Assembly (NCBI GenBank): GCA_903851235.1
Contig: CAINNR010000015.1
Span: forward strand, 11,327-75,326
DNA from: an uncultured Candidatus Berkelbacteria bacterium
GTDB lineage: Bacteria; Patescibacteriota; UBA1384; XYA2-FULL-43-10; CAINNR01
Direction of reading: 5' to 3'
DNA: 64,000 nucleotides
Part shown: one piece after another, positions 3,966-53,942 of the stretch
How the letters are laid out: every line of letters begins with the position of its first letter
Numbering within the stretch: position 1 is the stretch's first letter
Made by a program: the position numbers and the translations under genes
Notes under the pieces: model-generated
What the model was told of the DNA's origin: nothing
Seen by the model: only the letters and a program-made list of their open reading frames with translations
Databases searched by the model: none

Positions 3966-5090
3966 TCAGGAGATAAAGTCCAAATAGTTTTCTCTGTTAA
4001 TAATTTTAAATGTCGCATTTTTGTAAGCAGACCAATCGCTCGGCGGCAAAACTTTTTTTAACGGAGACCATTTGCATTCAAAACCAAAAAGCCGACCGTC
4101 GCGCTCTTCAACCAAATCAATCTCTTGCCCGCCATAAGTTCGCCAAAAATAGGAATTACCATAAATACCCAAGTAAGTTCTCTTTTTCAATCGTTCGGCA
4201 ATTACAAAATTTTCCCACAATTGCCCGACATCATTTCTGTCATTAAGCGAATTAAATTGTGATATCACTGCGTTGCGAATACCGTTGTCAAGAAAAAAAT
4301 ATTTGCTTTTACTCGTCACTTCAGACCGAAGATTGCCACTGTAACCATTGAGTCGAAATATTACAAATGATTTTTCCAATAAATCCAGATAACGAGCAAC
4401 GGTTTTGACATCAATTGATAGTTGATTAGAAAGTTCATTTAAAGACACCTCTTTACCAATTTGAAAGGCCAAAAGTTTCAAAAGATCAAACAGCATTTTA
4501 GGGTTTTTGATTTTATCAAAGGCTAAAATATCCTTAAAAAGATAAGAGTTGGTTGTTTCTTCCAATATATTAATCTTTTCCGCTTTACTTTTTGCAAGCA
4601 AAACTTCCGGATAACTGCCAAAAATCATCAATTCAGTTAATTCTTCTTTTAATTCAAAAGTGTTTTTTGAATCCGATAGTTCGGTCTCTGCGATCGGAAA
4701 AAGTTTCAAAGTGGTTTTGCGACCGGTTAACGGCTCGCCAACTTGGTTTGCCAAATCAAAAGATGATGATCCGGTGGCGATAATTCGAAGTCCAGGTAGT
4801 TGGTCAACAAGAATTTTTAATCCTTGCCCGATTCCAGGAATCCGTTGCGCCTCGTCGATGGCTAAAAGTTCATATCCTTTAATATATTCTAAAATTTGTT
4901 TAAAATCTTCTGAGCCGAGAATTTGTTGGGTTCGAATGTTGTCACCGGAATCAAGTTTGTATTTTAATTTGCTTTTGTCCAAATAATTTTGCAAAAGTGT
5001 GGTTTTGCCTACGCGACGAGGACCCAAAATAATTAGGGCTTTACCTTGCTTTAAATATTTGTCCAAGTTGTCATAATATCTTTTTATCAT
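3966..5090 (-). CDS. AAA+ ATPase, DUF4143-family ATP-binding protein
   Basis: Walker A GPRRVGKTT near the N-terminus, Walker B LLAIDEAQ, length and layout typical of the AAA_14+DUF4143 family. Confidence 0.65.
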   Translation of the reverse strand: MIKRYYDNLDKYLKQGKALIILGPRRVGKTTLLQNYLDKSKLKYKLDSGDNIRTQQILGSEDFKQILEYIKGYELLAIDEAQRIPGIGQGLKILVDQLPGLRIIATGSSSFDLANQVGEPLTGRKTTLKLFPIAETELSDSKNTFELKEELTELMIFGSYPEVLLAKSKAEKINILEETTNSYLFKDILAFDKIKNPKMLFDLLKLLAFQIGKEVSLNELSNQLSIDVKTVARYLDLLEKSFVIFRLNGYSGNLRSEVTSKSKYFFLDNGIRNAVISQFNSLNDRNDVGQLWENFVIAERLKKRTYLGIYGNSYFWRTYGGQEIDLVEERDGRLFGFECKWSPLKKVLPPSDWSAYKNATFKIINRENYLDFIS

Positions 5091-5611: not shown

Positions 5612-5918
5612 AAAAAATTTTTAAATCTTTTAAAATATATGGCTTAAATTCTTTGCGCAACATTTTCCCATCAGCCAAATCAATTTTCTTGCCGATTTTT
5701 TCTTCTAAGTCAGAATAAAGTCCGCCCATATCGAACAATGATGTGCCATCGGGATAAATAACATAAAAATCAATGTCGCTTTTTTCCGTTGCTTCTCCGC
5801 GGGCAAAGGAACCAAAAACTCCGGCACGGATGACACCATACTTTTTTAAAATTGGCGTTACAGAGATTTTTAATTGTTCCAACTCTTTGTCGTTCATGTT
5901 GAGCATATTATAACACAA
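5595..5918 (-). CDS. mntA: MNT-type nucleotidyltransferase antitoxin (HepT/MNT module)
   Basis: GVFGSFARGEATEKSDIDF minimal nucleotidyltransferase motif; directly upstream of and overlapping the hepT remnant. Confidence 0.7.
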   Translation of the reverse strand: MCYNMLNMNDKELEQLKISVTPILKKYGVIRAGVFGSFARGEATEKSDIDFYVIYPDGTSLFDMGGLYSDLEEKIGKKIDLADGKMLRKEFKPYILKDLKIFYEKTK

Positions 5919-5993: not shown

Positions 5994-7646
5994 TTAGTCT
6001 TTTGTTACACGCCAAACTTCGGTTGTTGTTGTCACACCTTTTAGAACTTGAATCAAACCATCCTGCTCCATTGTGATCATTCCCTCTGAGAGGGCGGTTT
6101 TTGTAAACTCGGCGATGGTTGCTTGCCGGCCGATAAGCGCTTCCATCTCCGCCGACGGCACCAAAACTTCGGCGATAACTTGGCGGCCGGAGTAACCGGA
6201 TTTGTTGCAAACCGTGCAACCGGCACCGCGCTTGAGTTTTATTTGATTGATCGGCAAATCGAGCATTGCGGCAATTTGCGGTTCAATCCGCTCCTTAATC
6301 GGAGAGAGAATATTCTTTATTTCTTCCCAAACCGGTTCGGTCGGCGAAAACTCCTCGGCACATTTGGGACAAACTTTTCGCACCAGCCGCTGGCCCATAA
6401 TTAAATTGATTGAACCGGCCAAAAGAAACGGCCGAACACCGATTTCCAAAAGTCGCGGTAGCGCGGCGGCAGCGGTGTTTGAGTGAAGTGTGGATAATAA
6501 GAGATGGCCCGTCAGCGCCGCCTGGACGCCGATTTCCGCTGTTTCCTTGTCGCGTATCTCACCAACCATTAAAATGTCCGGATCCTGGCGCAGTGCGGCT
6601 CGCAGACCATCGGCAAAAGTATAGTTGGCCTCCGGATCAACCTGGCTTTGTTCGACGCCGGAAATTCGGTATTCAATCGGGTCCTCAAGCGAGATAATTT
6701 TAATTCCAGGTTTTTTAAGCTCCATTATCATCGCATAAAGCGTCGTCGATTTTCCCGAGCCGGTCGGGCCGGTATTTAGTATCATACCGTGCGGTTTGGA
6801 AATCGCCGACTCGATTATTTTTACTGCATCCGGTCGGAAACCCAAATCGGCCAGCTTTTGAATCGACATCTCCTGACCCAGGAGCCGAAGGACGAGGCTT
6901 TCGCCGTAGGCCGAAGGCAAGGTTGAGACACGGAGGTCGATTCCGTTTGATCCGCGCTTAATCGAAAAACGTCCATCTTGCGGTTCAGCTGTGACATCCA
7001 TCTTTAATTTTGCCAGAAATTTTATCCGGGATAATAGAAATTTGTAAGTCTGGGTGTTCATTCGCAAAACATCCTGTAAGACACCATCAATTCGATATCG
7101 GGCCAAAAAATCGTCGGCACCGGGCTCGATGTGAATGTCGGAGGCATCCATTTTCGCTGCCGCAAATAATATCAAGTCAAGAAGTTCCGTCGTTGTCACC
7201 TTTTTCGCCGCCTCGGTGATGTCGGCAATCGTCTTGACCTGATCAATCAAATCCTCCTGCCGCTGAGAAACATTTAGGGCTTTCTTTTGCTGGCGTTCCT
7301 GTAGCTGGCGGAAAGAGTCAATGGCAAAAAGCAGGCCGGTTTTCGAAACCAACGAGAAGATGAACTTTGAATTATTCGTCCGCGAATACTCTTCAAGGTA
7401 ATTTTGTAACCGATCATTAACGGAACTGATGACCGCAAGCTTAATTTCCTTACCGATTTTCAAATACGGCACAAAGTTGAATTCCGACATTTTTTCCGCC
7501 GGAAACAGTAAATAAAGCTCGGAAGCAAATGGATAGCCGACCAAATCGATGTACGGCATGCCGAGCTTCCCGGCTAAACTTTGCGTCAGTTCCTCTTCAT
7601 CCTGCCGACGCAAATTAAACAATTTTTGATCAATATCAACCATCAA
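5994..7646 (-). CDS. pilB: GspE/PilB-family secretion/pilus assembly ATPase
   Basis: Walker A GPTGSGKSTT, Asp/His boxes, C-terminal CPKC...CTVC tetracysteine, N-terminal GSPII_E_N-like region. Confidence 0.8.
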   Translation of the reverse strand: MMVDIDQKLFNLRRQDEEELTQSLAGKLGMPYIDLVGYPFASELYLLFPAEKMSEFNFVPYLKIGKEIKLAVISSVNDRLQNYLEEYSRTNNSKFIFSLVSKTGLLFAIDSFRQLQERQQKKALNVSQRQEDLIDQVKTIADITEAAKKVTTTELLDLILFAAAKMDASDIHIEPGADDFLARYRIDGVLQDVLRMNTQTYKFLLSRIKFLAKLKMDVTAEPQDGRFSIKRGSNGIDLRVSTLPSAYGESLVLRLLGQEMSIQKLADLGFRPDAVKIIESAISKPHGMILNTGPTGSGKSTTLYAMIMELKKPGIKIISLEDPIEYRISGVEQSQVDPEANYTFADGLRAALRQDPDILMVGEIRDKETAEIGVQAALTGHLLLSTLHSNTAAAALPRLLEIGVRPFLLAGSINLIMGQRLVRKVCPKCAEEFSPTEPVWEEIKNILSPIKERIEPQIAAMLDLPINQIKLKRGAGCTVCNKSGYSGRQVIAEVLVPSAEMEALIGRQATIAEFTKTALSEGMITMEQDGLIQVLKGVTTTTEVWRVTKD

Positions 7647-7707
7647 CCCTCCGGGAAGTTATAAGACAAGAGATACAAATGTTTGCAATTTCTAATTCGA
7701 TTATCGG

Positions 7708-8625
7708 TTATTGATTTGCCAGTTTGTTGTAAATCAGTGTCCAGTAAGTCGAAAAATAGGCGTTGATTATGCCGCTGATCAGTAATATCAGCGCAATGTA
7801 TGCCAAAGCGGCTGGCGCGCCAAAGGCGATAACGGCAGCGAAACCGCCGGCGAAATAAATTCCGACACCAATGGCAAATAACACTCCGCCGACGATTAAA
7901 GCGATGAGTGCTAACCCGATTCCGGCCGCTAAACTCAGCGCCGCTTGAATCAACCAGGCAAGAATCACATTGGCGAAGTGGTGATGAACCAACTCTCTGG
8001 CGGCCGAAAACGCCGCGATAATTTTTTTGTTTTTGATCACAATTTCCCGATAACCGAATTGCAGTATCCAGCTAAGATATGCCGCCATAACGATGATTCC
8101 CAAAATCAACAATAGTCCGACCGGAATGACGATGATTAAAAACCAAAGACTGACTGACGCAACCAAGATGATTAAAGTTGCAACCAGCCCGGCAAGAACG
8201 AACACAATTGCAAAAATCATCAGCGCTACAAGTAATGTTAATCCGACGAAGCGCCAAAAATAGTTTTGGCCGGTGTGAAACGCGCTGTGAAATTCCGGTT
8301 TTTCATCCTCCGATTCAGCTTTGCCGATACTATAAATCAAGCCGGCTTTGGCCGAATATGAAACAAAAAGTAGAATTAACGAGATGATAAAAATCGCCAG
8401 GACAATTACCGTAAATTCCGCTCGATTACCGGAGACCCAATCAGCCAGCTTGTTCATCGATGATTGCATTGTATTCGAAGTGTTGGAAAAACTGCTGCTG
8501 GAATTATAGTAATTACCGACACCGCCTCCACCCTCGGCCAAGGCGGCCAAAATTCCCAAATACCAAAGCGCGCGGTATTTTTTAATATAGCCGAATGTTT
8601 TCCTTAAAATTTCAGCCCATTTCAT
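7708..8625 (-). CDS. polytopic membrane protein, unknown function
   Basis: Gly/Ser-rich stretch near N-terminus followed by at least 6 predicted TM helices; no recognised catalytic motif. Confidence 0.4.
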   Translation of the reverse strand: MKWAEILRKTFGYIKKYRALWYLGILAALAEGGGGVGNYYNSSSSFSNTSNTMQSSMNKLADWVSGNRAEFTVIVLAIFIISLILLFVSYSAKAGLIYSIGKAESEDEKPEFHSAFHTGQNYFWRFVGLTLLVALMIFAIVFVLAGLVATLIILVASVSLWFLIIVIPVGLLLILGIIVMAAYLSWILQFGYREIVIKNKKIIAAFSAARELVHHHFANVILAWLIQAALSLAAGIGLALIALIVGGVLFAIGVGIYFAGGFAAVIAFGAPAALAYIALILLISGIINAYFSTYWTLIYNKLANQ

Positions 8626-8752: not shown

Positions 8753-10120
8753 ATGAGACCGAGAGCGCTGTTACAGGCATTGTTGGTTTCCGGTGACGTT
8801 CAAGCCGCGGTCAGATTAGCACAACAGGAAATGGGACGCAACTTAACAAATCGCGAGCTGTTTCTGACGGCTAATCGCTTAATTCGCTGGGCGATAAAAA
8901 ACGGCTCTGATGATTTAATGCCGACCGAACCCAGCGGCACAATCGTTAATGGGCTGATATCCGACGTAGCCAATCTACTCGGGTCGCAGGCAAATGAGTT
9001 GTATGAGAAAATCTGCAATGCATTTTGCGACACCTGCGAACAAATGTTTGGGATTGATTCAGCGGGTCGATATCTGTCGGATGCGATTTATTGGTGTCAT
9101 ATGATTACCGACGTTCGACGGAGAAAACGGATCGGGTGCCGGATCTTGTCATTGGCAATCAACGGCGGTTATCTCAGCTCGGCGGACGATATCGCAAGTT
9201 TTTTGAGAGTAACGATCAGCCCGATCCACCGACTTTACTGTTTGATACTGTGTAGCGACCGAAATCTTTGGGAGAAAGAAGTTTTCCAGCATGAATATCG
9301 TCGCTGTTTCTGCGGCGAAAAAGCCGAAGTGCAAGAGCAGATAATCTCTTTGGTTGTTGATCGATTGGCAACCAACGGTCACATTCGAGTAGCGCTGAAA
9401 ACTGCCATTCCGCTTCTACCGGCAGAAAAGCGCCGTGGATCGTTGGAAAAAGCGGTGGAGGAAATTGTCTCAGGCGGCGCTTGGTACGAAGACATCGTAA
9501 ACGACCTAAGTGAACTTGGTCGGCCTCTGACAAAAAAAGAGATTTTGGTCTGGATTCCCAATCACATGCAGACCAGAGCATCCGGAAGCTTTATTAACGC
9601 TCGCAGAATGATTTTTACTCTTCGGAAATCGGAAATGGAACAAGCAAAGGCGACACTTTACCAACTCCGATACCTAAATTCCGATGAAATTTTAAAAGCC
9701 ACACGACACATCGGCAGTAAGCGTATTCGCCACCAAATTCTTGAATCACTGTTTTTCTCATTATTGGAACATGACATGTATCTGGAAGAAAACCAGCGAA
9801 TAGACTATACCTATCAGAAGATTAACGATTTCAGCGCCGATCTTGGTTGGGTTCGTGATCAAAGACGGCTTCACCGGCTCTTCCGCGAAGCCTGTAACAA
9901 ACGCCAGCAAATAGATTATGCCCATTCTATGTTGCCGGTATTCCGACCGTCGGATAAGATTTGGGCTACTGAGATGTTGATTGCCTCTCATATTTGCTTC
10001 CGCGACGCTTCAGATGGGCGGACTCTTGCGCTTGAACTTGCCACAACGCTTCCACCCGAACTGGCGACAAAATATCAACAAATTCTCTCCAAGCCGGTAA
10101 AAGTTGAAGTTGCCGAATAG
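8753..10120 (+). CDS. hypothetical cytoplasmic protein (455 aa, Cys-rich)
   Basis: Long ORF with AAGGGA RBS, own promoter-like TTGATT/TATAAA upstream and a terminator downstream; no recognisable domain. Confidence 0.4.
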   Translation: MRPRALLQALLVSGDVQAAVRLAQQEMGRNLTNRELFLTANRLIRWAIKNGSDDLMPTEPSGTIVNGLISDVANLLGSQANELYEKICNAFCDTCEQMFGIDSAGRYLSDAIYWCHMITDVRRRKRIGCRILSLAINGGYLSSADDIASFLRVTISPIHRLYCLILCSDRNLWEKEVFQHEYRRCFCGEKAEVQEQIISLVVDRLATNGHIRVALKTAIPLLPAEKRRGSLEKAVEEIVSGGAWYEDIVNDLSELGRPLTKKEILVWIPNHMQTRASGSFINARRMIFTLRKSEMEQAKATLYQLRYLNSDEILKATRHIGSKRIRHQILESLFFSLLEHDMYLEENQRIDYTYQKINDFSADLGWVRDQRRLHRLFREACNKRQQIDYAHSMLPVFRPSDKIWATEMLIASHICFRDASDGRTLALELATTLPPELATKYQQILSKPVKVEVAE

Positions 10121-10132
10121 CATAAACACGCT

Positions 10133-10161
10133 GCCCCGATACCGCATCGGGGCGTTTTTTT
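10133..10161 (+). terminator. rho-independent terminator
   Basis: gccccgat-accgc-atcggggc hairpin followed by TTTTTTT, 13 nt after the stop. Confidence 0.65.
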
Positions 10162-10240
10162 CTGTCGGCTATTGTATTATCGGAAAAAATCGGTAATAAT
10201 CAAGTCACCTCGTAGACACCCGACGATTGGAGGGTAACAG

Positions 10241-10777
10241 ATGACCATCAAAGATGTTGTCAAGCAGCGGAACAACATTAGGAAAGCCTGCTGGGGAGTT
10301 CTGTCCAGATATCCATCAGCAATTGAAGATCTGGTCGAAGATATCATTTTCCACATCGCCGGTAGGTTGGATAAATTCAGAGCTGAGAGTTCATTTGAGA
10401 CTTGGGTCCATCGAATCGCTACCAACCAAGCGATCAACAAGCTGAAAAAGCTGAAAAAAGAGGAGTGTTTGTCGCTTGATGCCTCAATTGGTGGCACAAC
10501 AGAGGATATCGATTTTGTCGACGTTTTGCTCGGCGACGGTCATTACGACCCTATGCCATCAATAGGGAGATTTCACGATTTGGAAACAATTCGCAATTCA
10601 CTCGCTTGGCTAAGGGAACACCACAATACGAATTATCGAGCGCTTTCGTTAGTTGTAGTTTACGGTTTTAGTAATCAATTTGCAGCGGAATATCTGGGTA
10701 TTTCACCGACATCAGTCCGGACAAGAATATTCCGAGCTAGAGAATCATTACGAAAAAGATTGGTTACTGAGAGATAG
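10241..10777 (+). CDS. ECF-type sigma-70 family RNA polymerase sigma factor
   Basis: Region 2-like WVHRIATNQAINKLKK and region 4 HTH YLGISPTSVRTRIFRARESLRKRL; GGAGGG RBS. Confidence 0.65.
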   Translation: MTIKDVVKQRNNIRKACWGVLSRYPSAIEDLVEDIIFHIAGRLDKFRAESSFETWVHRIATNQAINKLKKLKKEECLSLDASIGGTTEDIDFVDVLLGDGHYDPMPSIGRFHDLETIRNSLAWLREHHNTNYRALSLVVVYGFSNQFAAEYLGISPTSVRTRIFRARESLRKRLVTER

Positions 10778-10809: not shown

Positions 10810-11937
10810 TTATTTGCTATTTTCTTCGATTATTTTCTTATAAACCTTGGCGCTTTTGCGCGGCTGGCGATTAATATCATGCAGACCGAATTTCATTGTG
10901 TACCCACTCGACCATTCAAAATTGTCAATCAGAGACCAGTAAAAGTAGCCTCGAAGATCGGTGCCATCGGCGATGGCACGAGATAATTGCGAAAGATTGC
11001 CTTGAATAAATTTTTGGCGATCGACGTCAGCGGCCGGCGTGCCGTTTTCTGTTAGGTAGATCGGTAATCTCCAGCGCTTGGCCTCGATTAGCAGCTGATA
11101 TAGACTGTCGGCAATTTTTCCGCTTAGAATCGGCTTTTTCGCTTGAACTTTGTATGAGGCGTAGGAGTTAATACCGAGAAAATCAAGTTGCTTTCGGATT
11201 CGGCCGATAAAATATTCATTGACTATCCATCTTGCCAATCGGCTCAAGATTCGATCAAAAATATTTCGTCCGGCCGGTAAAAACGCGGTCATATTCATCG
11301 CAATTCCTACCTTGACCCTTGGATTGGCCTTTTTCATACTAATGTATGCTTGTTTATGAGCGGAAATTTGGTTAAAAAATGCCTTGACCCCAAGGATATA
11401 ACTCTTCTTTCCTGGGCACCAATCAGCAATAAAATAGCCTTTGTTGATATAGACATTCGGCTCATTTAATACCGACCATAATTCAACCGATCGCCCGAAC
11501 TCCTGCGCCATCCGGCCGGCAAAGCGAGCAAAATAGTCGATGGTTTTTCTGTTGGTAAATCCACCGATGTCGGCGACCCAAAGTGGAAGAGTGAAGTGAA
11601 ATAACGTCACCATCGGCGTGATATTATTTTTATTCAGTTCGTCGATCATTTCCCGATAGCGACCGATAACTTTTTTGTCAAAAAAACCTGGCGTTGGCTC
11701 GATTCGCGACCATTCGATGGAAAATCGATAGGCGTTTTGCGAAGTATTTTTCAGTAGTCGGATGTCTTGGCGCCATTTGTTCCAACTATCGGCTGAAATT
11801 TCTGATGTTCTGTGATCTGAAACATTGCCGGGAATTTTTTCCCAGCGCGCCCAATCGTTATTTAAATGACCTTCTATTTGGTGTGCCGCAGTCGCGGCAC
11901 CAAATAGGAAGTTTTTTGGAAATTTGAGTTTATGCAT
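10810..11937 (-). CDS. glycoside hydrolase family 1 beta-glucosidase
   Basis: FLFGAATAAHQIEG N-terminal signature, acid/base LNEP and nucleophile YLTENG motifs. Start moved to the Met preceding KLKFPKNFLFGAA (complement 11935..11937). Confidence 0.8.
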   Translation of the reverse strand: MHKLKFPKNFLFGAATAAHQIEGHLNNDWARWEKIPGNVSDHRTSEISADSWNKWRQDIRLLKNTSQNAYRFSIEWSRIEPTPGFFDKKVIGRYREMIDELNKNNITPMVTLFHFTLPLWVADIGGFTNRKTIDYFARFAGRMAQEFGRSVELWSVLNEPNVYINKGYFIADWCPGKKSYILGVKAFFNQISAHKQAYISMKKANPRVKVGIAMNMTAFLPAGRNIFDRILSRLARWIVNEYFIGRIRKQLDFLGINSYASYKVQAKKPILSGKIADSLYQLLIEAKRWRLPIYLTENGTPAADVDRQKFIQGNLSQLSRAIADGTDLRGYFYWSLIDNFEWSSGYTMKFGLHDINRQPRKSAKVYKKIIEENSK

Positions 11938-11980
11938 TTGATTTTTATATTGCCGGGATGACAGGATTGTTGACTGGGAA

Positions 11981-12289
11981 TTATATGTTATCGCTATCAA
12001 TGCTTTCTTGCATATAACGATAAACGATTGAAATAATTTCGCGGATATCGCCGTTGACATTTTTATATATTAAATTGTCAAAAGCAATATTTTTAAATTC
12101 ACGAATTGGGTCACTGATTAGGGCATGAATGAAAGATTGCGTTGCCCCATTTACACCACCAAAATCGATAATGACTTCATTTTGCTTCAATAATGCCGGC
12201 ATAAGCTGTTCTATCCTTATTCTTTTGGCAATGTCCTTGTTTTCAGCAAAATCTCCGGCCATTCTTTTAATTTTAATAAGATTTTTCAT
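11981..12289 (-). CDS. STAS-like DUF4325 protein (partner of GHKL ATPase)
   Basis: VIIDFGGVNGATQSFIHALI matches the DUF4325 core; start overlaps the upstream ATPase gene by 4 nt (operon). Confidence 0.5.
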   Translation of the reverse strand: MKNLIKIKRMAGDFAENKDIAKRIRIEQLMPALLKQNEVIIDFGGVNGATQSFIHALISDPIREFKNIAFDNLIYKNVNGDIREIISIVYRYMQESIDSDNI

Positions 12290-13254
12290 ATAAATCTTGG
12301 TCTCCTGTATTTCTCGCGTTTGCGTTCACGGATAGCTTTGTCATAAACTACACCGATGCCAGTCAATAATTCATTAAATTCTGGAGTTTCGTCAAGCGAA
12401 ATATCCACCGCTACCAATGTTCCCTGAAAACTTGGCGCATTATTTATTTCGCCATGCGGATCTCTACTTGGGTCGGCATATAATCTTGGCACCCCCTTGA
12501 TTCGTTTGTTATGCTTATGAAGAGTATATTCGGCACTACCACTATAAATAGCAAAGTAATTACGGGTAATTTTCGCTATCGACTTAACAAAGAACAATCC
12601 GGCGCCGGCATTTTCAGCAGTACCTCCTTCGCGTCTCGTTGTGCCCGTAATTCCTGGTGTTAAAGCCAATTTTATGGCTTCGATATGTGTTTTGGGATGC
12701 CAGTGAGTTTGTAAACTTTTCCAAATACCGATACCGGTATCGCAAATTCCGATACTGACCCGATTGGTTTTTTTGTAATATTGAGCAGCGACGACGGCGC
12801 CGCTCTTTGCAAAAGAGTGTTCCAGAACGTTTCTTACTAACTCACCAAAAATATATTTAATCACTGTCGCGTTTTTTTCTGATAGATGTAGAAGTGGAAT
12901 CATATCGGTAATAAAATGAGATTGTTCTTCAGCTGTTTTAATAATTTTAATAGGCAGGAATCGTCCGGATTCTTCTTTTTTATGATAATGAAATGGTGAA
13001 GATGTTTTTACAAAGTTAAAAAGCCCCATTCTGTCTAAATATCGTCCTGTGTCAGGAATGTCGCCAATAATTTCTGTGTTTTTCATACCAACTTTGATCG
13101 CCAGTGCAACTACCAAAACAAGATTAGCTGGATGAACAGTAATCCATTTATTATGAGTTGTTATCTCTAGTTTTCTTGGGTTTGAAAGGTCAAGAGATTC
13201 TACAAATTGTCGAAAATTTCGCAGATTCCCTTGATTTGATAAAAATATTCTCAT
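12286..13254 (-). CDS. GHKL-superfamily (histidine-kinase-like) ATPase, anti-sigma/serine-kinase-like
   Basis: N-box GELVRNVLEHS, G1 DTGIGI, G2 GAGLFF in the C-terminal half; about 150-aa N-terminal extension of unknown function. Confidence 0.6.
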   Translation of the reverse strand: MRIFLSNQGNLRNFRQFVESLDLSNPRKLEITTHNKWITVHPANLVLVVALAIKVGMKNTEIIGDIPDTGRYLDRMGLFNFVKTSSPFHYHKKEESGRFLPIKIIKTAEEQSHFITDMIPLLHLSEKNATVIKYIFGELVRNVLEHSFAKSGAVVAAQYYKKTNRVSIGICDTGIGIWKSLQTHWHPKTHIEAIKLALTPGITGTTRREGGTAENAGAGLFFVKSIAKITRNYFAIYSGSAEYTLHKHNKRIKGVPRLYADPSRDPHGEINNAPSFQGTLVAVDISLDETPEFNELLTGIGVVYDKAIRERKREKYRRPRFI

Positions 13255-13534
13255 AAGTATACTTTACCCGTCAGATGATTTTGTGTCAATAGGCACTCTA
13301 CGGGTAATTACTCCATAGGAGATCAGAATGTGAAATTGGATTTAGGCTAAATATGGCATAGTCAGGGTATCTCAATGCAATCACCAGCAAACCCCAGCAC
13401 AAATACTTATTGTACAAATCACTCGAATAAGGAATTCTCGGCAGAAAAGATAGTCGCTGTCCCCAAAAGAAAGTATTTGGGAAATTTGAGTTTGTCCATT
13501 TGGTTGTATTTTCTGGCGGACTGGATGCACTTCA

Positions 13535-13570
13535 CTTCGAATACCTTTTTGTCTGGCTTGACCAGTTAAG
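13535..13570. repeat. left copy of imperfect direct repeat flanking the AbiE cassette
   Basis: cttcgaatacctttttgtctggcttgaccagttaag; 33/36 identical to 15259..15294. Weaker similarity extends about 35 nt further on the left (tgtccatttgg..ggcggactg vs tgtctcatttggcgggctg). Confidence 0.6.
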
Positions 13571-13633
13571 GAAGACATACGATTCCGATAACATTTGCTA
13601 AATCACACCACAGATAATTTTGTCTGCGTCAAA

Positions 13634-14350
13634 TTAATTACTTTCGTTTATTAACCCTGGTTTGTCAGCATAAAGCTTTAAGCGAAAAAGCAGGTCGGAA
13701 ATCATTTTTGTTTTAACGTAGTTTTTTTGCTTGATATCTAGAATTTCACCTAAACCTTGTAGAATATTTAGCGTCCCTTTATTTTTTTCGAGGTAACCGG
13801 CCATCTTACTGAAGTATGCCGGTAATTCCATCCCTGTTCGACTTAAAATGATTTCTTTTTTAATCGGCCAATCATTGTTGAGAAAAAACCAACAGTCGAA
13901 CCAGTCACGATTCACCATTATTTTACGATCAAAGATAGCAACTAATTTATTGGCCGCAAGACAGTCTTTGTCCATGACTATAATCGGCAGACCATAATAT
14001 TCTTGAATGTTATAGGTATTTTCCGTATTTACCCTTTTTGAAATTTCGATTTTTATGCTGTGATCACCGTTTTTGTATGAGAGGCGGAAAAAGATCGTAT
14101 TTTGTTTGATCATTTCATCTTTGATATCCCCATACTTTATGGCAATAGATTTAACTTGATCGAAGATTTGTTGGTTATTGTCTTGAGATAAAAGATCAAA
14201 GTCCAAATCTGTCGAGAATCTTGGCAGATTGTAAAAAAGATAAGCCGCCGTGCCACCTTTAAACCCGAGCTTTTGGCTTAAACTCGGTTCACTGTAAATA
14301 TCAAATAGTATTTTTGTCATAAAATTTTCATGCACGGCTCGATCAAGCAT
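13634..14350 (-). CDS. abiEii: AbiEii/AbiGii-family nucleotidyltransferase toxin (type IV TA / abortive infection)
   Basis: LGFKGGTAAYLFYNLPRFSTDLDFDL matches the DUF1814/AbiEii signature; overlaps upstream abiEi by 8 nt. Confidence 0.7.
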   Translation of the reverse strand: MLDRAVHENFMTKILFDIYSEPSLSQKLGFKGGTAAYLFYNLPRFSTDLDFDLLSQDNNQQIFDQVKSIAIKYGDIKDEMIKQNTIFFRLSYKNGDHSIKIEISKRVNTENTYNIQEYYGLPIIVMDKDCLAANKLVAIFDRKIMVNRDWFDCWFFLNNDWPIKKEIILSRTGMELPAYFSKMAGYLEKNKGTLNILQGLGEILDIKQKNYVKTKMISDLLFRLKLYADKPGLINESN

Positions 14351-14927
14351 AATTTTCCTTTAGTCTTTTAATTTGTGATAAAAGTCGTTTATTAGAATAA
14401 GCCCGTGCGATCCGAAGACACAAATCCCAGTCGATATCGGTCAATTGATCAAAAACAAAATCTGGCGAGAGATAGAGAGTGTCGACAATCGACCTTTCCT
14501 TGGAAGCCACGGTTTTATTGCCAAGAAAGTGTATTCCAGCCGGATTGAGAAGGATTGGACCTTTAATTTTTTTATATACATATTCCGTATTTCCAACTGT
14601 AATCGACCGGCTTTGGTTTGAAACCGAATATATCCTTGAATCATATTGAAAATTGATTCCATTTTGCGCTAGAGCAGAATACAGGCCGAAATAAGACGGG
14701 GTAATCATTTTATTGGCCAGTTCAATCTTGTCATAGTTTTTACCAAGAGCGTAAAATCCCTTGCGAATGAGGAAGAGTTTTTGCGATTTGATCAAGCGGT
14801 TAATCTTTGTTTTAAGATAGTCATCTTTGTCAATCCGCCAAATTAAACTTAGGTCTTTAATCGAAAAGACGGTTTTTTGGCTTCGATAAAGCAAAACAAT
14901 TGGGTCTATTTTATTAGCTGATGTCAT
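14343..14927 (-). CDS. abiEi: AbiEi-family antitoxin/transcriptional regulator
   Basis: Length and IKDLSLIWRIDKDDYLKTKINRLIKSQKLFLIRKGFYAL winged-helix-like N-terminus typical of AbiEi; operon with abiEii. Confidence 0.6.
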   Translation of the reverse strand: MTSANKIDPIVLLYRSQKTVFSIKDLSLIWRIDKDDYLKTKINRLIKSQKLFLIRKGFYALGKNYDKIELANKMITPSYFGLYSALAQNGINFQYDSRIYSVSNQSRSITVGNTEYVYKKIKGPILLNPAGIHFLGNKTVASKERSIVDTLYLSPDFVFDQLTDIDWDLCLRIARAYSNKRLLSQIKRLKENYA

Positions 14928-15258
14928 ATATAAGTTATCAATAATGATTACCTATATTGTATATTATCAAATTAAATTTGTCAATAGTCACCGGCTCTTT
15001 GTCTCAATTTTGGCATAATATCAAATTCGGGGGGCTAAATTACCGGGTTTTGATGCATCAGTAGTAGATAATTGATCATTTATTTGCAGAAACTTGTAAT
15101 TAAATGGCTTAGAAGGATTTACAGGACTTACTAAACAGCCATTTTCAGACCCCATATTTTGCTATTAAGCCTTATTTTTAGTCCATTTTACAGAGCAATT
15201 TTGGACTTGCAGCCGATGAAACCTGGTCTTGTCTCATTTGGCGGGCTGAAACAATTTC

Positions 15259-15294
15259 CTTCGAATACCTTTTAGTCTGGTTTGACCAATTAAG
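15259..15294. repeat. right copy of imperfect direct repeat flanking the AbiE cassette
   Basis: cttcgaataccttttagtctggtttgaccaattaag; see 13535..13570. Confidence 0.6.
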
Positions 15295-15365
15295 ACAGAT
15301 TTTCAACATTCTCTGAATTTGCTGTCCTGCGTCCTTCAGTCTTTAATTGTTCCGATTATTTTGGT

Positions 15366-15662
15366 TCATTGTTCACGAATGACGAAAGATCGTTTATTGA
15401 TCTCTTGTAGAATCTTTAATGTTGCCTGTACCGACATGTTATCGCTTGGTAATAATACTAATTTATCTCCAAGTTGCTCAAATAAGGGGCCTAAAAATTC
15501 GTCCCCCCAAGAAGGGGAAAAAGTCAAAACGCCGGAGAAATCAATTTCCAAATTTTCATTTGGCTTAATGCCTTTGAATGCCGGTTGAAAAGCCTTGAAA
15601 GCTTCAAGTCCGGCTTGGCGAGAAATAAGTGTTGTCCCAAATTTTTTTAGTTCTATTAACAT
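15366..15662 (-). CDS. STAS-like DUF4325 protein (second copy)
   Basis: LEIDFSGVLTFSPSWGDEFLGPL core; immediately downstream of the HTH-GHKL ATPase gene. Confidence 0.5.
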   Translation of the reverse strand: MLIELKKFGTTLISRQAGLEAFKAFQPAFKGIKPNENLEIDFSGVLTFSPSWGDEFLGPLFEQLGDKLVLLPSDNMSVQATLKILQEINKRSFVIREQ

Positions 15663-15693
15663 AGATTTGTCCTTAATTATTTTATGATTAATA

Positions 15694-16413
15694 TTAGAAT
15701 TGGATTATAGCGGAACAACCCCTGAACATCTCTTGCCCGCGGGTAAGACGAAACTCCCTACCAGGCGACTTAATTCGAACTTCGGCATCTCCACTCTCAA
15801 AGAATAGGTCAATTGGCTGAGTTGTGGTAACTTCTCGAACAAACTTTAATCCATTTCCGCGTTTTTCCGGAGATCGTCCCGAGAGGATCTCTGTAAAGGC
15901 AACCTTAACTGCTTCAGTGTGATTTTTTAATGTAGGGCGTACCTGACGAAGTGTCTCCAAAATACCAAGACCACGGTCAGCAAGCACAATCTGCTTTTTG
16001 TTAATATCATATCCGAAAAAAATACCCGGCACATCCGGCCACTTCCCAAGATTGTGATCAAAGGAATTGTTTCCTATTTCACCAGTAATAGCAATGATAA
16101 CTGAAAACAATTTCTCAAAACCAGGTTGCTCCATCAACAATAATTCCAGCCTTGATAGCCTAACTTGAAAAACTGCGCTATTACTACAGTAAAATGCGGA
16201 AGGGAATTCCGAGCCCTCTTTCGCCCAATTATGAGCAAGCTTAACATTGTCACTTGAAAATATTTCAAGATCATTTTCTCTATAAAATCTGTGTACTCCC
16301 CCTTGTTTTCTGATCGCGACAAGCTTTCCACTACTGTCCCAGCGGCGGAGTGTGTCAATTGAAACACCAAGTATTTTTGATGCTTGAGAAATTGTAAGTA
16401 GTTGTTCTTCCAT
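15694..16413 (-). CDS. MerR/excisionase-type HTH fused to GHKL-family ATPase
   Basis: N-terminal ISQASKILGVSIDTLRRWDSSGKL HTH; C-terminal N-box GEIGNNSFDH, G1 DRGLGI, G2 GNGLKF. Confidence 0.55.
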   Translation of the reverse strand: MEEQLLTISQASKILGVSIDTLRRWDSSGKLVAIRKQGGVHRFYRENDLEIFSSDNVKLAHNWAKEGSEFPSAFYCSNSAVFQVRLSRLELLLMEQPGFEKLFSVIIAITGEIGNNSFDHNLGKWPDVPGIFFGYDINKKQIVLADRGLGILETLRQVRPTLKNHTEAVKVAFTEILSGRSPEKRGNGLKFVREVTTTQPIDLFFESGDAEVRIKSPGREFRLTRGQEMFRGCSAIIQF

Positions 16414-16446
16414 AATTTACCTCTGTAAATATATTAACACGAGATG

Positions 16447-16499
16447 TTAAACTATGCAAGTTTGTCATAAAACTATGCAAGTAATAGTTAAACTATGGA
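16447..16499. repeat. three 21-nt-spaced direct repeats (candidate operator) upstream of HTH-GHKL gene
   Basis: ttaaactatgcaagt (16447-16461), taaaactatgcaagt (16468-16482), ttaaactatgga (16488-16499); 34-86 nt upstream of the start at 16413. Confidence 0.4.
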
Positions 16500-16679
16500 T
16501 TTACACAACAACCTGAGATAGTTAACATCAATTGAAGCTTAATTTTCACTAACTAGAATTGTTAATTTTTGTTTGACGACAAGATTCGAACACATCCAAC
16601 CTGTAGTATTATTTTACATAAACAAGAAAAACTGTAAAAAAGACTCTTTTTTCATTACTCAAACATGGTGTTTATCTCA

Positions 16680-16757
<78 letters not shown>

Positions 16758-16772
<15 letters not shown>

Positions 16773-17015
16773 AAACTTTTTTATTATCTCCAATTTTTCT
16801 TTCCGCCCAGCCGAATGTTTTAAATACCACTCTCTTTTGCAAGCTTCCGATCGGGAATCGAACGATTCGGAATAAATCAACTTCCATGGTCTAAACGGTT
16901 TGGTTGATTTCGCTCCACCATGGTTATGTTCAGCCAATCTGCGATTCTGGTCGGTTGTTATTCCAACATAATGACGTCGTTTGGAGTTTTCTATCATGTA
17001 GACAAAATATTTCAT
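16758..17015 (-). CDS. GIY-YIG nuclease-superfamily protein (UPF0213/YhbQ-like)
   Basis: YFVYMIENSKRRHYVGITTDQNRRLAEHNHG matches GIY-x10-YVG...R..EH; the last 15 nt overlap the tRNA 3' region, so the true stop may differ. Confidence 0.55.
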
Positions 17016-17123
17016 ATAATTTCTTGATCGATTTAACTTGGCTACGCTTGGATTATAGCTGATAGTTTGATAAGTTTCAATAAAAAAAATCCTCAGATTA
17101 ATGCGGATTTTTTAATAAAAATT

Positions 17124-17360
17124 CTATTTGTAAGTGTTTTCATTTCTTCGTGAAATTGTCAACACAGTAATTTTCCCCTCGTCAATACGATATATAATAC
17201 GCTGGTCACCCAGTCGAAGGCGAAAAACATCGCCCCTGTTCTTAAGTTTTTTAATGTCCAGTCCTACAAGATTATTTGAAAAAAGTTTTGATAACACACT
17301 CTTGATATTCTTTCGCTCTTTCTCCGATAATTTTGCCAGTGCCTTTTCAATTTTATCCAT
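17124..17360 (-). CDS. RelE/ParE-family type II toxin
   Basis: RLRLGDQRIIYRIDEGKITVLTISRRNE C-terminal pattern typical of RelE/ParE. Confidence 0.65.
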   Translation of the reverse strand: MDKIEKALAKLSEKERKNIKSVLSKLFSNNLVGLDIKKLKNRGDVFRLRLGDQRIIYRIDEGKITVLTISRRNENTYK

Positions 17361-17369
17361 TTTTTTTTC

Positions 17370-17597
17370 CTATAATCGGCTCAGCAAATCCTCGATTGCA
17401 ACTCCGCCTTTTTGAATTTTAGTAAAGTCAATCACTTCTTCCCATAATTCTTCCTCGTCGTGGTTAATGGGACAGATACGAAAAACCGGTTTGGATTTTT
17501 TTACCACCAAAAAACAATCGCCGGCAGCAATTTTCTTTTCGTAAGCAGGCAAATTTTCTCTTAATTCTTTTAGACCGATTATTTTTTCCATACACAA
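17370..17597 (-). CDS. putative Phd/YefM-like antitoxin
   Basis: 75-aa acidic protein immediately upstream of the RelE-like gene with a 9-nt gap; classical antitoxin position. Confidence 0.45.
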   Translation of the reverse strand: MCMEKIIGLKELRENLPAYEKKIAAGDCFLVVKKSKPVFRICPINHDEEELWEEVIDFTKIQKGGVAIEDLLSRL

Positions 17598-18990: not shown

Positions 18991-19326
18991 TTACCCGATC
19001 TTTTTTAATAAATCGGATAATTCTGTCTGGACGTCGGCAAGTTTTAACGGCCAATTTGGCAATTTGTGGGCGGTCAGAACAGCATCAAAGCCTTTCGGCA
19101 AAGTTTGTAACTCTAGGCGAATAACTTCTCGCAGGCGGCGTTTTAAGGCGTTTCTTCGAGTCGCCCTTTTATCAACCTTGGTACCGACAACGACAGCGAA
19201 ACGGATAGCGCCCAGGCGATTTGGCGCATAACGTATAGAAAAATTGACCGACCGAATCGATTTGCCGAATTTGAAAACTCTTTGAATCTCATTTGATTTT
19301 CTAAGCCGATTGATATTATTCAGCAT
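18991..19326 (-). CDS. rnpA: ribonuclease P protein component
   Basis: Basic 111-aa protein with RLRKSNEIQRVFK N-terminus, position upstream of yidD. Confidence 0.8.
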   Translation of the reverse strand: MLNNINRLRKSNEIQRVFKFGKSIRSVNFSIRYAPNRLGAIRFAVVVGTKVDKRATRRNALKRRLREVIRLELQTLPKGFDAVLTAHKLPNWPLKLADVQTELSDLLKKIG

Positions 19327-19354
19327 TGAACTGATGATAGCACTATTTTACGAA

Positions 19355-19387
19355 CAAAAAAAGGCGCCTGACCCGAAGGCCAGACGC
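19355..19387 (-). terminator. rho-independent terminator of the high-GC cassette (UUCG tetraloop)
   Basis: On minus strand gcgucuggcc-UUCG-ggucaggcgc (10-bp stem with 2 GU) followed by UUUUUUU. Confidence 0.65.
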
Positions 19388-19412
19388 TTGTTACATTTGT
19401 GAATGTCGGAAT

Positions 19413-20033
19413 CTAGAAGTTGATCTTGAGGCTGCCCTCGATACGGGCGGTGTCAGTAGTCTTATTGTTCACCCCCCACAGGTAGCGGAGCGACAACGAG
19501 CTACCACCGGGGCCGCTGATCTCGACTTTCGGACCGACGCCCAGTGTATTCCCGGTCCCTTCCTGCCAACAGTTCGAGACGGCAACGCCGACTCGGACAT
19601 TGTGGCGGACCGGATGACTGACGGCCACCTGGTTCGTGTACAGCACCCAGGGGCCGTTGTTGAGGGGAATATAGGCACCACCTGCGGACTCAAACTTCCA
19701 GTCCGATCCCAGCTCGTGGTTGTACACCCAGAACGGCTCCGCGAAGAGCTGGGACGACTTGTCCCACCATGAGACATAGCCACCCAGCAGCAGTGTGTCA
19801 CTCTTGCCGGCCTTCACAGGCCAAAGGCGGCCTGCTTCGTAGACCGGGAAGTCCGGCTGAGAGAAAGACCACAGCTCCCAGCCGCTGGCATCGAGCCAAG
19901 CGCTGGTCAGACCAGCGTGCCCACCTCGGGGCATGTCCACACGCCCAAGGAGCGTGCCATCTGCGTGGGCGACGGCGGACGACAGAACCAACATCATCAA
20001 GGCGACGAACAGAACAGCGGTGCGTTGCATCAT
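19413..20033 (-). CDS. high-GC ORFan: secreted protein with signal peptide, C-terminal Phe (beta-barrel-like)
   Basis: Roughly 60% GC versus roughly 40-50% in flanks. Start at MMQRTAVLFVALMMLVLSSAVAHA with AGGGAGG RBS. Alternating hydrophobic pattern, ends ...IEGSLKINF. Inserted between rpmH and rnpA. Confidence 0.5.
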   Translation of the reverse strand: MMQRTAVLFVALMMLVLSSAVAHADGTLLGRVDMPRGGHAGLTSAWLDASGWELWSFSQPDFPVYEAGRLWPVKAGKSDTLLLGGYVSWWDKSSQLFAEPFWVYNHELGSDWKFESAGGAYIPLNNGPWVLYTNQVAVSHPVRHNVRVGVAVSNCWQEGTGNTLGVGPKVEISGPGGSSLSLRYLWGVNNKTTDTARIEGSLKINF

Positions 20034-20098
20034 ACTGGAAACGCCTCCCTCTGCTTGGTTTTTTGGTACCAAGCGACCGGATATGACTGTGTATGGGC

Positions 20099-20127
20099 AT
20101 TATAGCAAAAGTATATACTTTTGTCAA
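20099..20127 (-). promoter_or_regulatory. consensus sigma70 promoter driving the high-GC ORF
   Basis: Minus strand TTGACA (20122-20127), 17 nt spacer, TATAAT (20099-20104). Confidence 0.5.
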
Positions 20128-53003: not shown

Positions 53004-53942
53004 CTAACTGGATTTTTCCTCGGTTCGTTTCCCATGAAAGGCTTTGTGAACATCGCGCAAGTGTTGGTCGGTGACATGAGTGTAAATTTGGGTTGTTGAG
53101 ACGTTGGCGTGGCCGAGAAGTGATTGGACGCTTCTCAGATCGGCGCCATTGATTAAAAGATCGGTGGCGAATGTGTGGCGCAGTGTGTGCGGTGAAACTT
53201 TTTTGCTGATTCCGGCGGCCTTGGCGTATTTGGCTACGATTCGTTCAATTGACCTGACGGTTAATCTACTGCCGGCAATTTTGTTTAGTATCAACTCTTC
53301 ACTGTCACCGATCAATTTGATATAGGTTTCCAAAATTTGGTGAGCGGAATCAGACAAAAAAACCACTCGGACTTTGCCACCTTTACCGCGGACGGGAATT
53401 TCGTTGCGCTCCAAATTGATATCGCCGATGTTCAAGTTTGCCAGTTCGGAAACCCGAAGTCCGGTCGAAAACAAAAGTTCCAAAATTAAACGATCTCTTA
53501 GCCCTTTGAAACTGGCAATATTTGGCATTTTTATCAGCAGGACGATATCCTTGGCCTCTAAAAATTCAACTTTCCGCTCCTGACTTTTTGCCAAGGCAAC
53601 TTTCTGCGGTGCAAGCGAGACGATCCCGCGACCGGCAAGAAACCCCAAAAATGCCCGGAGAGTAATAATATGATAATTTTGTGTCGAACGTTTAAGCGGC
53701 CGTCCCATTTTATCGGACAAGCGATTTAAATACAGACGATACTCTTTGACAGCATCGGAAGTGATTGCGTCGGCAGTCAATGGTTCTTTATCGGCGGGAT
53801 TATTCTGTCGTTTGAAATCGTCGAACCAAGTAATAAATTTTGTCAGGTAACGATCATAATTTGAAATGGTTAAAAGCGACTGGCCTTTTTCCAGTTCGCA
53901 ATATTCGAGAAACTCGCGTTTTAGACTCCAAAGATCTTTCAT
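53004..53942 (-). CDS. tyrosine site-specific recombinase, XerC/XerD family
   Basis: C-terminal HTLRHTFATDLL...GHANVSTTQIYTHV (R-H-R-Y catalytic residues), N-terminal SAM-like core-binding domain. Confidence 0.8.
   Translation of the reverse strand: MKDLWSLKREFLEYCELEKGQSLLTISNYDRYLTKFITWFDDFKRQNNPADKEPLTADAITSDAVKEYRLYLNRLSDKMGRPLKRSTQNYHIITLRAFLGFLAGRGIVSLAPQKVALAKSQERKVEFLEAKDIVLLIKMPNIASFKGLRDRLILELLFSTGLRVSELANLNIGDINLERNEIPVRGKGGKVRVVFLSDSAHQILETYIKLIGDSEELILNKIAGSRLTVRSIERIVAKYAKAAGISKKVSPHTLRHTFATDLLINGADLRSVQSLLGHANVSTTQIYTHVTDQHLRDVHKAFHGKRTEEKSS

Follow-up and report, generated by a model that had tools for sequence, protein, structure and literature searches.

A pair of imperfect direct repeats (R) brackets a two-gene AbiE cassette in the stretch of 64,000 nucleotides analysed here (hereafter the window), which belongs to contig CAINNR010000015.1 of an uncultured Candidatus Berkelbacteria bacterium. 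Both R copies are most probably scars of junctions that formed as the AbiE cassette recombined into a growing stack of three recombinase-less defence cassettes that reaches from a tRNA-Ser gene to a GH1 beta-glucosidase gene. Three repeat pairs stand here in staggered adjacency; the cassettes have defined boundaries and are absent from the corresponding place in relatives, and the island holds no recombinase. In the more specific form that we favour, and to which we give about even credence, two junctions of an accretion array of three cassettes have R as their common arm, and the array was built by serial single-crossover insertion of circles at an att-like tRNA-Ser 3' end. Every gene between 10.8 and 18.5 kb lies on the minus strand, and the locus is described in that direction.

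The R cores at 13535-13570 (R_A) and 15259-15294 (R_B) are identical at 33 of 36 positions, with mismatches at the other three, and blastn of one copy against the other gives E=5e-10. The ungapped extension covers 48 nt at 83% identity, the Smith-Waterman alignment takes in 13514-13570 and 15239-15294, and a weaker gapped similarity fades at ~13609/15324, for a total gapped extent of ~57-96 nt. As features, the downstream copy R_A occupies 13514..13609 and the upstream copy R_B 15239..15324 (neither assigned to a strand), with the 3' termini TCCGCCA (13514-13520) and CCCGCCA (15239-15245), respectively. Pattern search, blastn and Smith-Waterman alignment thus bear out the coordinates and the identity of the 36-bp imperfect direct repeats reported in an earlier note on this DNA. 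The same note had placed the copies 64-72 nt beyond the stop codons of minus-strand genes, which is essentially right, the gaps being 63 nt from the AbiEii stop (13634) and 71 nt from the DUF4325_B stop (15366). It had also described the repeats as enclosing abiEii-abiEi and about 330 nt of non-coding DNA (the genes are recognized by Pfam and PADLOC, and the non-coding part is 331 nt), as flanked by DUF4325/GHKL genes (so assigned by Pfam) and as having no recombinase between them, in agreement with the list of open reading frames (ORFs) and with Pfam.

A search for the repeat elsewhere, which the note had proposed as a check, indicates that R is not a generic repeat. A degenerate pattern of the core that tolerates up to three mismatches finds exactly two sites in the window and matches none of 100 dinucleotide shuffles. 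The 22-nt R core has no match in the JGI metagenomes or in IMG/VR, and among 185,579 species representatives of GTDB, to which the genome of the window apparently does not belong, only two exact, chance-like matches were found, both at the start of atpC in metagenome-assembled genomes (MAGs) of Roseivirgaceae. Moreover, nhmmer and blastn searches of the loci of relatives and of the surroundings of homologous cassettes (L005-L045) recovered no R, and no inverted repeats were found at the cassette ends. A transposon, a miniature inverted-repeat transposable element (MITE) or a repetitive extragenic palindromic (REP)-type dispersed repeat was rejected on these grounds: two copies in the 64 kb of the window, no terminal inverted repeats and a core missing from JGI and IMG/VR.

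R is the middle one of three staggered direct-repeat pairs (DR1, DR2 and DR3), each of which brackets one two-gene cassette. In minus-strand order the locus reads tRNA-Ser–O–F1, cassette 1, R_B–O–F2, cassette 2, R_A–O–spacer–GH1', cassette 3, GH1, where O is the heptamer (T/C)CCGCCA at the tRNA end, and F1 and F2 are the flanks 3' of the tRNA and of R_B. The left arms of the three junctions are the tRNA, R and R, the right arms are F, F and the start of GH1, and CCGCCA is common to all of them in between. R itself, as DR2, has a period of 1724 nt and brackets AbiE together with a spacer of ~200 nt (15016..15218, no strand assigned) that leads from R_B/F2 to the AbiE unit; nothing in GH1, in IGR_A or in the loci fetched for comparison resembles this spacer.

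DR1 starts at the tRNA gene. tRNA-Ser(cga) (16682..16772, minus strand; called by ARAGORN and matched by the Rfam tRNA model at 58 bits) turns its 3' end (…CTCCGCCA, at 16682) toward the array. Copy 1 of the pair (16661..16687, minus strand) consists of the last 6 nt of the tRNA, CCGCCA, and 21 nt of the downstream flank F1, and copy 2 (15219..15244, minus strand) of CCGCCA and the 20-nt flank F2, which resembles the flank downstream of tRNA-Ser. In the alignment of CCGCCAAATGAGA-CAAGACCAGGTTT with CCGCCAAGTGAGATAAACACCATGTTT, 22 of 27 positions agree with one gap, and the pair brackets MerR-GHKL/DUF4325 with a period of ~1443 nt. Across the whole 4.8-kb island, the best match to the tRNA end is the end of R_B (15219-15244); shuffles equalled it in 3 of 1000 cases against IGR_B and in 11 of 500 against the island, and the anchored comparison of F1 with F2 was equalled by 40 of 2000. 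Both R copies terminate in (T/C)CCGCCA, the 3' terminus of the adjacent tRNA-Ser, and neither of them lies inside a tRNA. Because both copies end in the tRNA terminus and the 20 nt that follow R_B resemble the 20 nt that follow the tRNA, the att-like reading gains support. The left 60 nt of R do not resemble the tRNA (to which 760 and 964 of 2000 shuffles align as well), and a left arm derived from a decayed tRNA-Ser 3' half (GGTATTCGAAG vs GGTTCGAAT) was rejected, its anchored alignment being no better than shuffles.

DR3 involves the GH1 gene. Its copy 1, GH1' (13452..13505, minus strand), is a 54-nt pseudo-copy of the GH1 start that begins 8 nt after R_A; it runs from 6 nt upstream of the ATG (AACCAAATG) to codon 16 and encodes MDKLKFPKYFLLGTAT where the real GH1 has MHKLKFPKNFLFGAAT. 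Copy 2 is the 5' end of the real gene (11890..11943, minus strand), to which GH1' is 80% identical (blastn E=7e-8; Smith-Waterman score 56 versus 18.2±2.2, reached by none of 500 shuffles), and the identity of GH1' to the GH1 5' ends of L006-L008 is 84%. A weaker R_A/GH1' similarity extends ~40 nt upstream of the GH1 ATG, to ~11983 (32 of 3000 shuffles in an anchored 40-nt test). DR3 brackets GHKL_A/DUF4325_A with a period of 1562 nt, and the beta-glucosidase gene behind it (10810..11940, minus strand; Pfam 3.7e-85) is intact and forms the conserved right-hand anchor of the locus. Since R_A adjoins GH1', R is tied to the ancestral tRNA-Ser/GH1 junction and not to the ends of the Abi cassette. 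A second GH1' relic, sought after R_B, was discarded, as the sequence there has no significant similarity to GH1.

All three cassettes are self-contained, which we count in favour of this reading: cassettes 2 and 3 have promoter-like sites, strong ones directly upstream of AbiEi and of GHKL_A, and cassette 1 has a conserved leader. Cassette 2, the AbiE unit (13631..14987, minus strand), comprises a promoter-like site (14984..14956; 11/12 in the promoter scan), AbiEi (14343-14927) and AbiEii (13634-14350), with AbiEi upstream and overlapping AbiEii by 8 nt. AbiEii matches the PF08843 (DUF1814) nucleotidyltransferase family at 8.8e-19 and the PADLOC AbiEii model at 8.3e-60, and AbiEi its PADLOC model at 7.2e-43. 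DNA homology of this unit to other genomes is confined to ~14987..13631, and the flanks are unrelated. Thus, the Patescibacteria contig L019 is 80.6% identical over a span that begins at the promoter-like TTGACA-17-TACAAT and ends 3 nt beyond the stop codon, and the same limits recur in L020, L022-24 and L043-45, with 72-73% identity in L043. The L019 copy lies downstream of yidC–jag–tRNA-Ser(cga), as it does in the window. In L043 (2441-4631), a 73%-identical AbiE pair directly follows a Replic_Relax gene and a long partial ORF, a context from which this AbiE lineage may also ride a plasmid-like or conjugative element.

Cassette 1 (15359..16502, minus strand; identified with Pfam and PADLOC) consists of the leader, a MerR-HTH/GHKL gene (15694-16413) and a DUF4325 gene (15366-15662). 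It is 76-78% identical at the nucleotide level to four JGI contigs (L025, L026, L029 and L030), only over 16502..15359, and the likeness ends at the stop codon. Cassette 3 (11981..13289, minus strand) has a promoter-like site (13289..13261), a GHKL ATPase gene (12286-13254) and a DUF4325 gene (11981-12289). For cassettes 1 and 2 alike, similarity to copies elsewhere stops at the stop codon, and R is absent from all loci that carry homologues of the AbiE or MerR-GHKL units; R was therefore not carried as a 3'-UTR element of either cassette, and the duplication of such an element, offered in the earlier note as an alternative to insertion, is rejected. Over 118 aa, the two GHKL modules of the window are 31% identical, and no alignment could be made between their DUF4325 partners. 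Being only distantly related, the modules represent separate acquisitions, and a recent segmental duplication that would have made them paralogues and given rise to R is discarded on the same figures. None of the cassettes was found in viral contigs.

The leader of cassette 1 contains three (C/G)CATAGTTT operator-like direct repeats. Upstream of every MerR-GHKL gene, (T/C)(G/C)CATAG(G/T)TT is present in 2-3 direct copies spaced 20-52 nt apart (window 16443-16501; L025 1518-1556; L030 5913-5951; L033 5874-5956; L035 418-505; L039 1590-1677), and these repeats are probably the operator of the MerR-type HTH domain. The GHKL_A protein (12286-13254) matches the N-terminal region of the PADLOC model of DrmA from DISARM (positions 44-247 of 1750, 4e-15), and the N-terminus of MerR-GHKL_B matches a 60-residue 'mad1' model. 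Together, GHKL and DUF4325 appear to form an uncharacterised module for defence or partner switching; searching the literature for DUF4325 brought up nothing relevant.

The array occupies a place that varies among relatives. By its GH1 gene, the organism belongs with Candidatus Berkelbacteria-like members of the candidate phyla radiation. GH1 orthologues in Berkelbacteria are 60-70% identical and their synteny is conserved, the order being rnpA–yidD–yidC, then tRNA-Ser(cga) and a GIY-YIG gene on the other strand, then one variable gene and GH1. This gene encodes a hydrolase or a cupin in some relatives and is a 191-aa ORF in another case; in L005, a relative with no tRNA detected on its contig, a 23S-rRNA-IVP gene lies directly upstream of GH1. 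None of the relatives examined has AbiE or GHKL/DUF4325 pairs in the tRNA-Ser–GH1 interval. Because the cassettes are missing there, we regard this interval as a variable hotspot, in which the window has three extra two-gene modules. The comparison with an empty site that the earlier note had called for is consequently answered in part: relatives lack all three cassettes, but an exact site with a single R joining the two GHKL modules was not found. In the relatives the tRNA has the opposite orientation and the slot is filled by another gene, and no exact attB was recovered. The opposite side of the tRNA/GIY-YIG pair seems to accept insertions as well, since a Phd/ParE-type toxin-antitoxin pair, located in the window at 17124-17597 between yidC and a terminator hairpin, is absent from that position in all relatives examined.

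The orientation of the tRNA reflects an inversion. Relative to four related Berkelbacteria loci, a segment of the window comprising tRNA-Ser, GIY-YIG and ~65 nt upstream of GIY-YIG (16682-17081) is inverted; the tRNA-Ser(cga) and GIY-YIG genes overlap by 15 nt. The terminator hairpin at 17082-17113 adjoins the tRNA 3' end in relatives and the GIY-YIG upstream region in the window, and because it has kept its place, one breakpoint of the inversion must lie within a few nt of the tRNA 3' end. After the inversion, this end is turned toward the array and the GH1 side, which agrees with the R_A–GH1' junction. No convincing inverted repeats able to mediate the event were found. Furthermore, in L019, the contig with the closest AbiE copy, 58 nt comprising the 3' end of tRNA-Ser(cga) and its flank are duplicated 440 nt downstream (5690-5747 / 6130-6188), a duplication that would be an att-like scar at the same tRNA. 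To judge from the sequences of the L019 duplication and of the inversion breakpoint in the window, recombination takes place at the 3' end of tRNA-Ser(cga) in this clade.

The mosaic of junctions suggests how the stack could have formed. Two circles, each with the same attP-like site (R–O–F, ~85-120 nt), would have integrated in tandem by single reciprocal crossovers into an attB made up of the tRNA-Ser 3' end directly followed by the start of GH1, with the resulting mosaic B-O-P' / P-O-P' / P-O-B'. The AbiE cassette would have arrived as a ~1.7-kb circle, both copies of R would be the attP-derived arms of neighbouring junctions, and R_A–GH1' would be the preserved old right-hand chromosomal junction. 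Cassette 3 would have entered later, at the GH1 5' end, duplicating ~54-90 nt. Our inferences here concern the existence of circular intermediates, a crossover located at O, the succession of the insertions and the nature of the catalyst. As no cassette encodes a recombinase, the enzyme would have acted in trans: an integrase that has meanwhile been lost or is encoded elsewhere, as with cis-mobilizable elements (CIMEs), or the host recombination system. The insertion by attL/attR-like recombination proposed in the earlier note survives in part. The discrete mobile AbiE unit, the relatives without cassettes and the tRNA-end heptamer at both R copies speak for it, whereas its placement of the event between the two GHKL modules has to be revised, since both modules are independently acquired cassettes, each with a repeat pair of its own.

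Several observations weigh against serial insertion at the tRNA end. The DR1/F similarity is short, moderately significant (p ~0.003-0.02) and was chosen post hoc; O, only 6-7 nt long, is all that the sites have in common, and the left part of R is not tRNA-like. No integrase is encoded in the island (10.8-18.5 kb), and the only tyrosine recombinase in 64 kb is an Xer-like ORF of the Phage_integrase family (53004-53942) at a distance of 37 kb. Among GTDB representatives, JGI and IMG/VR, no circular junction, no empty site and no second genome carrying R was found. As the copies of the repeats are only 78-92% identical, the events must be old or have taken place between diverged partners.

The R_B segment is a further such point, in that only one assembly supports it. 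Assemblies obtained independently for this organism agree with the window at 99.9-100% identity over 15015->12043 and 16868->15311, and R_A is covered at 100% identity by independent contigs (L001-L004 and L013). None of these assemblies covers 15030-15310, the segment holding R_B, and since no independent contig crosses it, this segment and its context depend on one assembly; an exact-protein look-up of the 43-aa ORF over R_B put no independent contig on record. Two contigs from different samples end 55 nt past the DUF4325_B stop codon, the end of L012 mapping to 15311 and that of the second contig being derived from its gene coordinates. In L001, from another sample, 31 nt (ACTGGCTATCCACCACCAAAGATATAGAGGG, L001 1-31) do not match the window upstream of 15015. 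The contig ends at 15311 and the alternative junction at 15015 are compatible with a population polymorphism at the R_B junction, which we count in favour of serial insertion; alternatively, the assembly is at its weakest in the segment that contains R_B.

The remaining point against it comes from other loci. MerR-GHKL/DUF4325 cassettes in three other metagenome contigs are bracketed by imperfect direct repeats that are locus-specific and unrelated in sequence. In L025, the repeat is 112 nt long and 89% identical (1383-1494 / 3993-4104) and corresponds to the 3' end of the upstream 506-aa host gene, with nine codon differences between the copies, four of them synonymous; the bracketed unit also contains a Fic-motif gene. 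In L030, it is 75 nt long and 93% identical (5772-5846 / 8209-8283), and the unit also has a 347-aa ORF. The repeat of L039 is 30 nt long and 90% identical (1512-1541 / 2699-2728); its second copy begins one base past the DUF4325 stop codon, in a unit that measures no more than 1187 nt. None of the three units has a recombinase inside, and that such cassettes are bracketed by direct repeats elsewhere too speaks, as such, for the favoured reading. That one cassette family is bracketed by such unrelated repeats fits homology-driven insertion better; locus-derived repeats of variable length are better explained by Campbell-type insertion of looped-out circles than by one site-specific enzyme.

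Accordingly, the alternative that survives best, possible if doubtful in our estimate, is host homologous recombination on short diverged homology, with the same single-crossover circle geometry and without an att-specific recombinase: a cassette flanked by direct repeats would loop out by recombination between them, the circle would be taken up by a related cell and it would be re-inserted at the orthologous locus. It agrees with repeats that are imperfect and vary in length by locus (27, 30, 54-90, 57-96, 75 and 112 nt), that represent local sequence, such as the 3' end of the 506-aa gene in L025 or the GH1 5' end in the window, and that bracket units of 1.2-2.6 kb with no recombinase in any of them. 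Genes for type IV pilus/T2SSE components near the orthologous loci of relatives are compatible with DNA uptake; in the window, 5994-7655 is 75% identical at the DNA level to the T2SSE gene of L006. However, the tracts are short and 8-22% diverged, and RecA-type recombination would be very inefficient on them unless the divergence arose after insertion. Moreover, the first insertion at each locus would still require an illegitimate event, and the coincidence of the junctions and the inversion breakpoint with the exact tRNA 3' end is left unexplained.

Quite unlikely, in our view, are scars of illegitimate recombination formed without any circle, in which homology fixed linear DNA from relatives on the tRNA/GIY-YIG side, while its other end was joined illegitimately. 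R_B (cut ~15 nt before the ATG) and R_A with GH1' (cut at +48) would then be orthologous copies of the GH1-upstream region from different donors. Indeed, the two relics resemble nested prefixes of one sequence (R, and R followed by the GH1 start), GH1' is about equally similar to the GH1 of other species (84%) and to that of the window (80%), and the hotspot is variable in every relative examined. Nevertheless, R occurs upstream of GH1 in no relative examined, the resemblance between the tRNA flank and the R_B flank is left without an explanation, and the tight direct-repeat bracketing in L025, L030 and L039 is not accounted for.

A functional cis-element or small gene that was duplicated, whether a terminator or 3'-UTR element, a small RNA or a small ORF, is very improbable as the source of R. 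It might be suspected from the position of both copies 63-71 nt downstream of an operon, from a minus-strand frame (LNWSSQTKRYSK vs LNWSNQTKRYSK) in which two of the three core differences are synonymous, and from a 65-aa ORF that gene callers predict over R_A. But the two copies fold no better than shuffles on either strand (z-scores -0.87 to +0.63), Rfam has no match at R and finds only the nearby tRNA, and no hairpin with a T-run terminator is present there. Just beyond the 36-nt core, indels or stop codons interrupt each of the three candidate reading frames, Pfam has no match to them, and phmmer with the best frame against 1.84 billion proteins returned only tandem-repeat proteins. The 65-aa ORF is not conserved in R_B, and R does not accompany homologous cassettes elsewhere. 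Two particular coding origins were discarded: a plus-strand remnant (FEYLFVWLDQLRK / FEYLLVWFDQLRQ), whose upstream part is the antisense of GH1', whose frame is broken by an indel and which has no Pfam match, and the 3' end of a minus-strand gene (…LNWS[SN]QTKRYSK), for which phmmer gives tandem-repeat noise only and a 4-nt indel just upstream breaks the frame.

Scarcely credible is a decayed housekeeping-gene fragment or chance similarity: the only exact matches to the 22-nt core are indeed the first codons of atpC (…VTPDEKVFEGEV…, codons for TPDEKVFEG) in two MAGs of Roseivirgaceae (Bacteroidota; L017 6956-6977 and L018 4418-4439), but these two are mutually homologous, ~0.3 chance matches are expected in 596 Gb by our own estimate, tblastn of that AtpC against the window gives E 0.2-0.3, Pfam finds no ATP-synt_DE_N, both R copies contain stop codons, so that we judge the atpC match to be chance, and the likeness of R_A to R_B is itself far beyond chance.

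The favoured array of serial insertions is a variation on a known kind of structure; what is unusual is its lineage and its very small scale. Genomic islands accrete in tandem at tRNA and tmRNA genes, and CIMEs are att-flanked elements mobilizable in cis that have lost their integration genes (Pavlovic 2004; Bellanger 2011; reviewed in PMC5704250); the ssrA islands of Dehalococcoides (PMC3146451) offer a comparison for tandem accretion. As in such islands and CIMEs, cargo modules stand in a row at a tRNA 3' end with imperfect direct repeats between them, no unit has an integrase of its own, each internal junction has arms in common with the adjacent ones, and the cargo consists of defence and toxin-antitoxin genes. 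By contrast, the units of the window are very small (~1.4-1.7 kb, two genes each), the array has no relic of integrase or transfer genes, the repeat has no more than CCGCCA and a 20-nt flank in common with the tRNA, and cassette 3 uses the GH1 5' end. To our knowledge, no such array has been described for Patescibacteria, also called the candidate phyla radiation (CPR).

The use of a protein gene by cassette 3 recalls islands with dusA-specific integrases, which integrate in the 5' end of a protein gene and restore that gene (PMC4482086). Likewise, cassette 3 stands between two copies of the GH1 5' end, a truncated pseudo-fragment and the beginning of the intact gene; unlike dusA islands, it has no integrase, forms a unit of 1.5 kb and is accompanied by a duplicated tract that is only 80% identical. 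As for the cargo, cassette 2 is predicted to be an ordinary AbiE type IV toxin-antitoxin/abortive-infection system, with matches to both the AbiEii and AbiEi models, an 8-nt overlap and the antitoxin first.

Integron gene cassettes are bounded by attC sites and inserted at attI by IntI. The window array shares with them small recombinase-less units of one or two genes, head-to-tail arrangement at one site and a recurring separator of ~60-100 nt. It differs from them in having no IntI, attI or Pc, in an R without an attC-like palindrome or fold, in cassettes that carry their own promoter-like sites and in separators that differ between junctions.

Assembly of defence islands is usually deduced from large integrase-bearing elements. 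Here, on the favoured reading, three staggered scars make the order and the junctions of three independent acquisitions beside a tRNA gene directly readable. That two-gene defence modules of Patescibacteria/CPR (AbiE, MerR-GHKL/DUF4325 and GHKL/DUF4325) generally move as recombinase-less micro-cassettes of 1.2-2.6 kb, bounded by locus-derived imperfect repeats of 27-112 nt, is a speculative and rather unlikely generalization. Such a route could be distinct from integrons, transposons and integrase-bearing islands, and could work through a trans-acting recombinase directed at tRNA ends or through the uptake and Campbell-type insertion of looped-out circles. If it were general in CPR, micro-cassettes would explain how toxin-antitoxin and defence genes are exchanged among very small genomes, and concrete junction sequences could be searched for in reads; if not, the locus would be an ordinary decayed accretion array.

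Two features lie outside the array. Between GH1 and a DUF7544 gene, the window has an ECF-type sigma-70 gene (10241-10777) and a 455-aa ORF without a Pfam match (8753-10120), together spanning 8753-10777; the gene next to GH1 on this side in relatives is DUF7544 or a short-chain dehydrogenase. On the other side, a stretch of 1 kb at 19001-20100 has 54% G+C within a region of 36-39% G+C. It has open frames on both strands, among them a 219-aa ORF without a Pfam match (19413-20072), and may be foreign DNA next to rnpA.

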